In this document: in pieces, positions 53,070 through 56,000 of the stretch
Numbering within the stretch: position 1 is the stretch's first letter
Layout of the letters: each line of letters opens with the position of its first letter
NCBI RefSeq assembly: GCF_054482595.1
Contig: NZ_CM137008.1
Direction: 5' to 3' (one strand)
Length of the DNA: 64,000 nt
Program-made: the position numbers

Positions 53070-56000
53070 TAAACTCCAGACAAGTTAGTTTTAAAAAATG
53101 ACTCACCGGGACTTCATGTCCTCAATTCAACTCGGGAAGAAAAGCAATGAAAAAAAAGGTTCTGGCAATAGCTCTGGTAACGGTGTTTACCGGTATAGGT
53201 GTGGCGCAGGCTGCTGACGTAACAGCTCAGGCTGTAGCGACCTGGTCAGCAACAGCCAAAAAAGACACCACCAGTAAGCTGGTTGTGACGCCACTCGGTA
53301 GCCTGGCGTTCCAGTATGCCGAAGGCATTAAAGGTTTTAACTCACAGAAAGGTCTATTTGACGTGGCTATCGAGGGTGACTCAACGGCTACCGCCTTTAA
53401 ACTGACCTCACGTCTTATCACCAACACATTAACCCAGTTGGATACCTCAGGTTCCACACTGAATGTGGGCGTGGATTATAACGGCGCGGCAGTCGAAAAA
53501 ACTGGCGATACCGTGATGATCGATACCGCCAACGGCGTACTGGGCGGCAACCTTAGCCCGCTGGCTAACGGTTACAATGCCAGCAATCGTACCACCGCAC
53601 AGGATGGTTTCACCTTCTCCATCATCAGCGGCACCACCAATGGTACCACCGCAGTAACCGATTACAGCACTCTACCGGAAGGCATCTGGAGCGGCGACGT
53701 TAGCGTACAGTTCGACGCGACCTGGACCAGTTAATCTCTCTGATGTACCAGCAGGGGTAGCCCCCCTGCTTTATTCCTGGACGGAATTGTTATGAAAAAG
53801 CACCTTCTGCTTCTCGCTCTGCTGTTATCCGGAATATCTCCGGCCCAGGCGCTGGATGTCGGCGATATATCATCGTTTATGAACAGTGACAGCAGCACGC
53901 TGAGCAAAACGATCAAAAACAGTACCGACAGTGGTCGCCTCATCAATATCCGTCTCGAACGGCTCTCTTCACCGCTTGACGACGGGCAGGTTATCGCAAT
54001 GGACAAGCCGGATGAGTTGCTACTCACTCCCGCCAGCTTGCTGCTACCCGCCCAAGCCAGCGAAGTGATCCGCTTCTTCTATAAGGGACCAGCAGATGAA
54101 AAAGAGCGCTACTACCGCATTGTCTGGTTTGATCAGGCCCTCAGTGATGCGCAGCGCGATAATGCCAACCGCAGCGCTGTGGCCACTGCTTCCGCCCGCA
54201 TCGGCACCATTCTGGTCGTCGCACCCCGCCAGGCAAACTACCACTTTCAGTACGCCAACGGCTCCCTGACAAATACAGGAAATGCGACGCTGCGGATCCT
54301 CGCCTACGGCCCCTGCCTGAAAGCCGCCAATGGTAAAGAGTGTAAAGAGAATTACTACCTGATGCCGGGCAAGTCGCGTCGTTTTACCCGCGTGGACACG
54401 GCGGATAACAAAGGACGGGTTGCACTTTGGCAGGGTGATAAGTTCATTCCCGTGAAATAGATAGCTGTGCAGATGGATAACGACAATGCCTTTACGACGG
54501 TTCTCCCCAGGACTGAAAGCCCAGTTTGCCTTCGGCATGGTCTTTTTGTTCGTTCAGCCCGATGCCAGCGCTGCTGACATAAGTGCGCAGCAAATAGGTG
54601 GGGTGATTATTCCGCAGGCCTTCAGTCAGGCGCTTCAGGACGGCATGAGCGTCCCGCTCTATATTCATCTCGCCGGTAGTCAGGGTCGCCAGGACGATCA
54701 GCGAATCGGCAGCGCTTTTATCTGGCTGGATGATGGACAGCTACGCATCCGGAAAATACAGCTGGAAGAGAGTGAAGATAACGCCAGTGTCAGCGAACAA
54801 ACTCGACAGCAGCTGATGGCTCTGGCAAACGCCCCGTTCAATGAGGCCCTTACCATCCCCCTGACTGACAACGCGCAGCTGGATCTCAGCTTGCGCCAAC
54901 TGCTGCTGCAGCTGGTGGTCAAGCGCGAAGCGCTGGGCACTGTACTACGCTCACGTAGCGAAGACATCGGGCAGTCCAGTGTTAACACCCTCAGCAGTAA
55001 TCTGAGCTATAACTTCGGCATCTATAACAACCAGTTGCGTAACGGCGGGAGTAACACATCCAGCTATCTGTCGCTGAATAACGTTACTGCACTGCGCGAA
55101 CATCATGTGGTGCTCGACGGCTCGCTGTACGGGATCGGTAGCGGTCAACAGGACAGTGAATTATATAAAGCGATGTATGAACGCGATTTTGCCGGTCACC
55201 GATTTGCCGGTGGAATGCTCGACACCTGGAACTTGCAGTCCTTAGGGCCGATGACCGCCATTTCAGCAGGGAAGATTTACGGCCTTTCCTGGGGAAACCA
55301 GGCCAGCTCCACCATCTTCGACAGCAGCCAGTCAGCCACGCCAGTGATCGCCTTTTTACCGGCGGCGGGCGAAGTACATCTCACCCGTGATGGGCGGTTA
55401 CTAAGCGTTCAGAACTTCACCATGGGCAATCATGAAGTGGATACCCGGGGTCTACCGTACGGTATTTACGATGTGGAAGTTGAGGTGATCGTTAACGGTC
55501 GCGTGATCAGCAAACGCACTCAACGGGTCAATAAGCTGTTTAGCCGGGGGCGCGGCGTCGGTGCACCACTGGCGTGGCAGATATGGGGCGGTAGCTTTCA
55601 TATGGATCGCTGGTCGGAAAACGGGAAAAAGACGCGACCAGCTAAAGAGAGTTGGCTGGCAGGTGCCTCGACCTCCGGCTCACTGAGTACGCTTAGCTGG
55701 GCGGCAACGGGATATGGATACGATAATCAGGCGGTGGGTGAAACCCGTCTGACGCTGCCGCTTGGGGGAGCGATCAACGTTAACCTGCAAAATATGCTGG
55801 CCAGTGACAGCTCATGGAGCAACATCGCCAGCATCAGCGCCACTCTACCGGGAGGCTTTAGTTCGCTGTGGGTTAACCAGGAAAAAACCCGCATTGGCAA
55901 TCAATTGCGACGTAGCGATGCCGACAACCGTGCAATCGGCGGCACACTCAACCTGAACTCACTGTGGTCGAAGCTGGGCACATTCAGCATCAGCTACAAT

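Follow-up and report, generated by a model that had tools for sequence, protein, structure and literature searches.

The window analysed here (the whole stretch of DNA, 64 kb in length) comes from E. coli and contains the first genes of the ecpRABCDE operon in the order ecpR-ecpA-hairpin-ecpB-ecpC. The ecpR gene (52482-53072) was recognised as an NCBIfam equivalog. The major pilin gene, ecpA (53147-53734, + strand), was matched by the NCBIfam EcpA equivalog NF047910 with an E value of 1.8e-94 and with a RefSeq annotation beneath the match, and the gene that follows on the same strand, ecpB (matC/yagY; 53792-54460), codes for a periplasmic chaperone, assigned by the EcpB family PF18649 and by the RefSeq name EcpB. 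Both genes are separated by 57 nt (53735-53791), and the hairpin found there, which has ecpB as the nearest gene on its 3' side, sits between the gene for the major subunit and the chaperone and usher genes of one transcription unit. The first-pass annotation had placed it right after the major pilin gene, and the gene boundaries agree with this.

According to a passage of PMC10038029 that cites Martinez-Santos 2012, a single promoter, located 121 bp upstream of ecpR, drives transcription of the ecp genes, and the whole operon, including ecpD, was switched on by an IS insertion after ecpR (PMC11137339). When the + strand of the ecpA-ecpB gap was scanned for promoter-like sites, none was found. 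The pilus itself, ECP, is placed in the alternative (alpha) chaperone-usher class in a passage of PMC4461329.

The stem begins 15 nt past the TAA of ecpA and ends 21 nt short of the ATG of ecpB, in non-coding sequence of the sense (+) strand. After the spacer (53735-53749), whose length would place the hairpin just outside the footprint of a terminating ribosome, the sequence and the predicted fold define a 5' arm, AGCAGGGG (53750-53757), a 5-nt loop, TAGCC (53758-53762), and a 3' arm, CCCCTGCT (53763-53770). The arms form a perfect 8-bp stem with six G-C pairs, and TTATTCC (53771-53777) lies directly 3' of it, so that the GC-rich stem, the short loop and the trailing ttattcc noticed at first reading were all recovered. 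From the last G-C pair onwards, the T-tract TTTATTCC (53770-53777) contains 5 T among 8 nt; the corresponding U-tract of the RNA is interrupted (UUUAUUCC). Differences among E. coli alleles are confined to the loop, which reads TACC in others. Further downstream, GGACGGA (53779-53785, + strand), with two GGA motifs, is found within and beside a weak 5-bp hairpin (53773-53787, -3.4 kcal/mol), and is likely the weak Shine-Dalgarno region of ecpB; a GGA is present 9-13 nt upstream of the ecpB ATG in most genera.

The 29-nt hairpin has a folding energy of -15.0 kcal/mol (z = -3.63), a value that was equalled by none of 200 shuffled sequences, and it was present in both the minimum free energy and the centroid structures of a 179-nt context; the whole 76-nt stretch was less marked (z = -1.56). 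A generic terminator pattern was only mildly enriched in the window, with 17 matches against 10.5 expected. With a stricter score, which combined a perfect stem and a weighted T-tract and was used for its rank alone, as the d-score is uncalibrated against real terminators, four matches were obtained in 2 x 64 kb and the ecpA-ecpB hairpin ranked first. Dinucleotide shuffles of the window yielded 0.44 matches at or above the hairpin's stricter score at any position, which corresponds to about 2e-4 such sites expected by chance in the gap (0.44 x 57 nt / 128,000 nt).

In a genome scan, ecpA and ecpB were adjacent in 30 of 32 loci, the remaining two being short contig fragments. Intact ecpA-ecpB loci numbered 28 and represented at least 13 enterobacterial genera, and nearly all of them had a hairpin and a T-tract at the same position. 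The intergenic region of these homologues is mostly 54-64 nt long, and in most loci the stem, counted by its last G-C pair, follows the ecpA stop codon at a distance of about 14-17 nt and leaves about 20-25 nt to the ecpB ATG. The one clear exception was K. indica, in which an insertion of about 200 nt separates an intact stem from the T-tract. A per-sequence search, restricted to stems closed by G-C pairs, gave 16 stem variants in 27 distinct homologous sequences, all of them complementary, together with 24 loop variants. The stem GCAGGGG/CCCCTGC was found in Escherichia, Klebsiella, Raoultella, Enterobacter, Cedecea and Pantoea; Pluralibacter has GCAGGGA/TCCCTGC, Phytobacter GCAGAGGG/CCCTCTGC, Kosakonia GCAGGAGCGA/TCGCTCCTGC, Serratia and Symbiopectobacterium GGCGGG/CCCGCC, and Morganella GGGCAG/CTGCCC. 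As most sequences share the identical GCAGGGG stem, the independent compensatory events are few.

Pairing between the arms was also followed in alignments. In a covariance-model alignment, which is biased towards its own input structure and in which the most divergent stems (Serratia, Kosakonia and Morganella) were misregistered, 91.6% of the cells were paired, compared to 54-70% when the partner was slid; 6 of 10 pairs showed changes on both sides, and for four of five covariation measures the observed value was reached by 0 of 500 shuffles. A plain MAFFT alignment, which misaligns the divergent stems, gave covariation in the same direction but weaker, and RNAalifold on it returned only 7 weak pairs. 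The covariance model matched one site per locus, in the ecpA-ecpB gap only, in the 28 loci.

As the inverted repeat is a perfect DNA palindrome whose opposite strand folds equally well, it might be read as a feature of the DNA, such as a site bound by a protein or a REP-type dispersed repeat, or as a functionless product of chance. A TTCCT pentamer is present at 53774-53778, and this is the sequence that Martinez-Santos 2012 reportedly described for EcpR boxes. However, the pentamer is not conserved beyond Escherichia, what is conserved is the pairing and not the sequence, the loops vary freely and the T-tract is found on one strand only, so we regard such readings as very improbable; the expectation of about 2e-4 sites in the gap speaks against chance in particular. 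A REP, BIME or other dispersed repeat was rejected, since the motif is single-copy in the window even with up to 2 mismatches allowed and the model matched only the ecpA-ecpB gap. A bidirectional terminator was also discarded, as no T-tract follows the hairpin on the opposite strand.

The T-rich run is the part of the structure that bears on a second alternative, according to which the hairpin would be only a barrier to mRNA decay: there would be no termination, 3'-5' exonucleases would stall at it after endonuclease cuts in the ecpB-E part, and the stable ecpA message would produce the same excess of pilin mRNA by differential decay alone. Such a barrier would fit the stability and conservation of the stem, the imperfect U-tract of E. 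coli, and the stabilisation of fimbrillin mRNA that Lehti et al. 2013 reportedly found. Intercistronic hairpins of this kind are well known from puf and malEFG, as judged from the references given in PMC5927463, and like the malE-malF REP and puf elements the ecp hairpin is a stable intercistronic structure that would be accompanied by unequal mRNA levels within one operon. Those elements, however, function with no U-tract, and dispersed repeats are among them, whereas the ecp hairpin is single-copy and has a conserved U-tract. A decay barrier needs no T-run, yet a mean of 5.5 T was counted in the 8 nt after the stem compared to 1.3 in the 8 nt before it, and at least 5 T followed the stem in 24 of the 27 distinct sequences. 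Several genera even have perfect T6-T7 tracts; poor tracts were found in K. spallanzanii and in copy b of Phytobacter. Protection from decay as the sole function is therefore considered unlikely. Both functions are compatible, as the papA terminator likewise protects the 3' end (PMC5927463); the sequence by itself fits termination as well as 3'-end protection, and the papA model has both.

The anatomy, the occurrence in at least 13 genera, the compensated stems and the one-sided T-tract support the proposal of the first-pass annotation that the hairpin acts as a terminator with an effect on operon polarity. We consider with good confidence that it is an intrinsic (Rho-independent) terminator which immediately follows the gene for the major pilin, in the interior of the ecpRABCDE operon; the complementary stem variants and the restriction of the T-run to the 3' side disfavour both a palindrome arisen by chance and a dispersed repeat. 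Like canonical E. coli intrinsic terminators, it has a GC-rich stem of 7-8 bp, a loop of 5 nt (mostly 4 nt in the homologues) and, immediately behind the stem, a T-rich tract; many homologues have A-rich sequence upstream of the stem. Unlike them, it lies inside the operon and not at its end, and its U-tract is interrupted. Because of this interruption the efficiency of termination in E. coli cannot be predicted, although it is probably below maximal. Termination would have to be partial, because ecpB-E reportedly depend on the promoter upstream of ecpR; the activation of ecpD by the IS insertion and the lack of a promoter-like site in the gap likewise call for read-through. Most likely, therefore, a part of transcription is halted at the hairpin, which would leave more message for the pilin than for the assembly machinery.

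In the mechanism that we propose, RNA polymerase would start at the promoter upstream of ecpR and transcribe ecpR and ecpA, and about 15 nt past the ecpA stop codon the nascent RNA would form the 8-bp GC-rich hairpin. The weak rU:dA hybrid at the UUUAUU tract would then allow the release of some polymerases, with transcript 3' ends predicted at about 53775-53778, equivalent to about 310040-310043 on the minus strand of MG1655. The products would be ecpRA transcripts, or processed ecpA transcripts, with a terminal hairpin that shields them against 3'-5' exonucleases, whereas the polymerases that read through would provide the mRNA for the chaperones EcpB and EcpE, the usher EcpC and the adhesin EcpD. 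As a net effect, the pilin message would be both commoner and longer-lived than that of the assembly machinery, and such an excess fits a fibre made of very many EcpA subunits and few ushers. An upstream antiterminator was also considered and was rejected, as no CCCCTG-like complement was present in the final 130 nt of ecpA and the hairpin persisted in the 179-nt fold.

Published 3' ends were inspected at the gap. The K-12 Term-seq tables of Adams et al. 2021 contain no sense-strand 3' end in it, and the TERMITe supplements have no entry for it. The missing K-12 end constitutes only weak counter-evidence, since planktonic K-12 cells do not express the mat/ecp operon (PMC8516962); a usable Term-seq data set from a pathotype expressing ECP was not found. 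The RefSeq annotation of K-12 carries no feature at the hairpin site, and in the open-access literature no description or annotation of an ecpA-ecpB terminator or of an ecpA transcript was found, although an earlier account may exist in Pouttu 2001, Rendon 2007, Martinez-Santos 2012 or Lehti 2012/2013.

Another chaperone-usher operon of the same species, that of fim, likewise has a structured RNA immediately behind its major subunit gene: the fimA-fimI intergenic region of K-12 is annotated as the sRNA FimR2. RNase E processes this sRNA out of the transcript of the fim operon, and motility and biofilm formation are regulated by it (PMC9723502). By analogy, the 3' UTR of ecpA (about 43 nt, 53735-53777) could be imagined as a functional sRNA with trans-acting effects on motility genes or on those of other adhesins. 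A link between the ecp operon and the switch from motility to adhesion exists as well, via MatA (PMC8516962), and the spacer upstream of the hairpin shows moderate conservation. Even so, about half of the spacer positions differ between Escherichia and Klebsiella, the region matched no Rfam family, and the K-12 Term-seq data, from cells in which the operon is silent, showed no small-RNA 3' end there. The fim gap gives rise to a CsrA-binding sRNA with GGA motifs, lacks a clear T-tract terminator and folds no better than its shuffles (z = 0.03), whereas the ecp hairpin has a T-tract and is not known to yield an sRNA, and no GGA (CsrA) motif occurs in 53735-53777. The U-tail is in addition short and interrupted, and such tails bind Hfq poorly. 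We thus hold an sRNA function to be highly unlikely, and it is equally doubtful that a released sRNA would link common-pilus expression to motility or other adhesins, with a conserved, slightly imperfect U-tract tuned for both the pilin-to-machinery stoichiometry and the sRNA output.

A partial terminator is a simple explanation of how one promoter could give many EcpA subunits and few chaperones, ushers and adhesins, in an operon that codes for an adhesin which ranks among the most widespread in E. coli and related bacteria. The hairpin would be useful for annotation and for reading ecp RNA-seq data, and in the design of ecpA deletions or fusions its retention or removal should alter the expression of ecpB-E.

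Conceptually the arrangement is nothing new; it is an ordinary pilus-operon design and another case of the papA type. The precedent is papBA, in which a regulator gene and a pilin gene come first and the papA mRNA then ends in a terminator that resists RNase (PMC5927463). In both systems a single chaperone-usher operon contains a regulator (papB or ecpR), a major pilin (papA or ecpA), a stem-loop terminator, putative in the case of ecp, and the assembly genes, and in pap the terminator forms the 3' end of the abundant pilin mRNA and also shields it (PMC5927463). The papA and ecp hairpins share no sequence similarity. For pap, experiments have shown a 5' stem-loop and cleavage by RNase E in the stretch from papB to papA, whereas ecp has only a weak candidate for a 5' hairpin. 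This candidate, GGGAC-TTCAT-GTCCT (53108-53122, + strand), precedes the ATG of ecpA by about 25 nt (-6.5 kcal/mol, z -1.7) and might stabilise the 5' end of a processed ecpA mRNA in the manner of papA, although its place in the system is uncertain. Similar small hairpins recur at this position in other genera, but the fold in the window is weak and significant covariation was not obtained.

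The 301 bases around the hairpin were matched in 4,966 of 5,426 complete Escherichia coli genomes, which assigns the window to this species, and ecpA and ecpB are the RefSeq annotation beneath that match. NCBIfam names were obtained for EcpR (52482-53072) and EcpA (53147-53734); the chaperone gene ecpB (53792-54460; EcpB family, PF18649) follows, and after it the usher gene ecpC, starting at 54486. The stretch 53735-53791 is exactly the 57-nt ecpA-ecpB gap. Within it, the 5′ arm AGCAGGGG (53750-57) pairs perfectly with the 3′ arm CCCCTGCT (53763-70) across a TAGCC loop, and TTATTCC comes directly after; the GC-rich stem, short loop and trailing TTATTCC had thus been correctly described in the first-pass annotation, as read from the sequence. 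The only hairpin difference between E. coli alleles is in the loop (TAGCC vs TACC), and the K-12 gap, identical to that of the window, carries no RefSeq feature.

Folded alone, the hairpin reached -15.0 kcal/mol (z = -3.63), with none of 200 shuffles folding as well, and the MFE and centroid structures of a 179-nt context both contained it. A wider 76-nt stretch around it was unremarkable (z = -1.56), and the scan tool's loose terminator pattern was only slightly more frequent here than expected (17 vs 10.5); by themselves, these two results would not carry the case for a terminator. With a stricter score, combining a perfect stem closed by G-C pairs and a d'Aubenton-Carafa weighted T-tract, only four positive sites were found in the 64-kb window, both strands included, the ecpA-ecpB hairpin ranking first. 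When the window was dinucleotide-shuffled, 0.44 sites with at least this score arose over its whole length, from which we derived a chance expectation of about 2e-4 in this gap on this strand. The hairpin motif is present in a single copy within the 64-kb window, and no Rfam family was matched by the region.

Scanning one genome per species with an EcpB profile gave 32 loci: 30 with ecpA immediately upstream of ecpB, and two short contig fragments. Klebsiella indica, with an insertion, and a degenerate locus of Enterobacter sp. EA-1 were left out, and the resulting 28 loci plus the window amounted to 27 distinct sequences. The gap is mostly 54-64 nt long in the 28 loci, with a GC-rich hairpin whose last G-C pair begins about 14-17 nt past the ecpA stop and whose end lies about 20-25 nt ahead of the ecpB ATG. 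The stem sequence varies by lineage with complementarity retained: GCAGGGG(G)/(C)CCCCTGC in Escherichia, Klebsiella, Raoultella, Enterobacter, Cedecea and Pantoea, GCAGGGA/TCCCTGC in Pluralibacter, GCAGAGGG/CCCTCTGC in Phytobacter (copy b), GCAGGAGCGA/TCGCTCCTGC in Kosakonia sacchari, GGCGGG/CCCGCC in Serratia and Symbiopectobacterium, and GGGCAG/CTGCCC in Morganella. The 27 sequences comprise 16 stem and 24 loop variants. In a MAFFT alignment 88.5% of cells were paired, compared to 57-71% with the partner slid. A covariance-model alignment, which is biased towards its model and still misplaces the most divergent stems, gave 91.6% compared to 54-70%, both-sided changes in six of ten pairs and, in four of five measures, observed values attained by 0/500 shuffles; for these reasons, the per-sequence hairpin table is the more transparent evidence. 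At every locus, the covariance model matched the ecpA-ecpB gap only. The hairpin is real and statistically unusual, and its conservation is strong, with compensated changes in the stem.

Phytobacter massiliensis (L018, L026) carries two separate ecpA-ecpB loci in one genome, as does a Klebsiella MAG (L013, L015). Each locus has its own hairpin version with a differing stem, in Phytobacter GGCAGGGG/CCCCTGCC in one and GCAGAGGG/CCCTCTGC in the other, so the element has been kept in paralogous operons. In the K. indica locus (L003, 2244-2501) the gap is 256 nt instead of the usual ~60, and an insertion of ~200 nt, containing the REP-like sequence GTAGGCCCGAGTAAGCGAAGCGCCACCGGGCA and giving no meaningful Rfam match, has a copy of the hairpin region on either side. 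In the upstream one the stem is intact and extended but the T-tract is missing; in the downstream one the stem is degenerate, with the T-tract and ecpB ribosome-binding site retained; the terminator may have been an insertion target. By tblastn, ecpR adjoins ecpA only in Escherichia, Klebsiella oxytoca-group and Pantoea loci. No EcpR homologue was detected within ~1.8 kb upstream of ecpA in Raoultella, Serratia, Kosakonia, Morganella and others (L007, L009-L012, L014, L016-L018, L020-L023, L025-L030), so the regulator is not a constant part of the operon, whereas the ecpA-ecpB hairpin is. Raoultella-type loci have an inverted repeat, TCCATAAAGAACTATGGA, before ecpA instead.

A mean of 5.5 T is found in the 8 nt that follow the last G-C pair (at least five in 24/27 sequences), with T almost always at positions 1, 2, 5 and 6, and the A-rich 8 nt before the stem contain 1.3. 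Perfect T6-T7 tracts occur in an Enterobacter MAG, Phytobacter copy a, Pantoea and Symbiopectobacterium. As a one-sided T-tract is needed by an intrinsic terminator and not by an exonuclease barrier or a DNA-binding palindrome, this asymmetric run is the deciding feature for a predicted terminator. The opposite strand folds equally well, but there the hairpin is followed by GGTACATC, which rules out a bidirectional terminator. The hairpin carries every sequence feature expected of an intrinsic terminator, and the earlier proposal of a partial terminator after the pilin gene, over-expressing the major subunit, finds support in sequence and cross-genus comparison. Because planktonic K-12 does not express the mat/ecp operon (PMC8516962), little can be read from the absence of a sense 3′ end in the gap from the K-12 Term-seq tables of Adams et al. 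2021, and of any entry for it from the TERMITe supplements.

The ecp genes are described, in a statement citing Martinez-Santos 2012 (PMC10038029), as an operon with a promoter 121 bp upstream of ecpR, and a passage in a review reports operon activation by an IS insertion just past ecpR, with later selection on ecpD (PMC11137339). A promoter scan of the + strand between ecpA and ecpB found no site. Therefore, polymerases must cross the hairpin for ecpB-E to be expressed, so that termination, if any, is partial. In E. coli the U-tract (UUUAUUCC) is interrupted, in line with a predicted sub-maximal, uncalibrated termination efficiency. We consider partial intrinsic termination after ecpA within the ecp operon to be quite probable. 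Transcription would start at the ecpR promoter and run through ecpA, and the hairpin would fold just past the footprint of a ribosome sitting at the ecpA stop, with which the conserved ~15-nt spacing fits. The U-tract would then free part of the polymerases at ~53775-53778, leaving an ecpRA or ecpA RNA that would be hairpin-ended and thereby also shielded from 3′-5′ decay. The abstract of Lehti 2013 reportedly states that MatA 'stabilizes the fimbrillin mRNA', which would fit such a transcript. Chaperones, usher and adhesin would be made from read-through transcripts. EcpB output would be reduced still more by its likely ribosome-binding site, no more than a GGA (53779-53785). On the + strand at 53773-53787, a 5-bp hairpin of low stability, AUUCC-UGGAC-GGAAU (-3.4 kcal/mol), has a GGA in its loop immediately before the ecpB start and a second one after; Klebsiella has UUCA-CGGAC-UGAA in the same place. 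Its sequence is similar to that of a CsrA-type site lying over the Shine-Dalgarno region, or the hairpin may simply be the ribosome-binding site.

The closest known system to this arrangement is papBA, where a regulator gene is followed by a pilin gene and the papA mRNA ends 3′ in an RNase-resistant terminator, with RNase E cleavage and a 5′ stem-loop further upstream (PMC5927463); ecp is the same in gene order and 3′ element. By analogy, a candidate hairpin ~25 nt upstream of the ecpA ATG, GGGAC-TTCAT-GTCCT (53108-53122, + strand), might serve as a 5′ stabiliser of the papA kind. Its fold is weak (-6.5 kcal/mol, z -1.7) and it shows no significant covariation; similar small hairpins occur in the same place before ecpA in Klebsiella, Pantoea, Phytobacter, Citrobacter and Raoultella. 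The K-12 fimA-fimI gap, unlike the ecp gap, is without a clear T-tract and folds no better than shuffles. It is annotated as the sRNA FimR2, RNase E-processed and CsrA-binding (PMC9723502), a precedent for the ecpA 3′ UTR also yielding a trans-acting RNA; this is improbable, however, as that UTR lacks a GGA motif and an Rfam match, and the available K-12 Term-seq data list no 3′ end in it. No description of an ecpA-ecpB terminator was found in the accessible literature. The putative ecpA-ecpB terminator is a previously unannotated instance of a well-known design, its mechanism not being new.

The best terminator-scan match is antisense inside ecpA (53491-53533, minus strand), with a stem of 13 pairs, including four G-U, followed by TTTTTCGACT. 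Published K-12 Term-seq places a 3′ end exactly at this hairpin (MG1655 310323 +, 'antisense ecpA', two data sets); therefore, an antisense RNA ends inside ecpA. No strong promoter was seen nearby in a scan of the minus strand, and the full hairpin is essentially E. coli-specific, being partly kept in Enterobacter JUb54 and Phytobacter. In K-12 Term-seq, a very strong 'orphan' 3′ end (scores ~88,000-99,000) also lies between ecpE and ykgJ, ~280 nt downstream of ecpE at about window position 59605 on the + strand (MG1655 304212/3, minus), at a hairpin GCGGTAC...GTACCGC followed by TGTTCTCTTT. Its presence despite the silent K-12 ecp operon points to a short and abundant separate transcript, or else to the leader of ykgJ.
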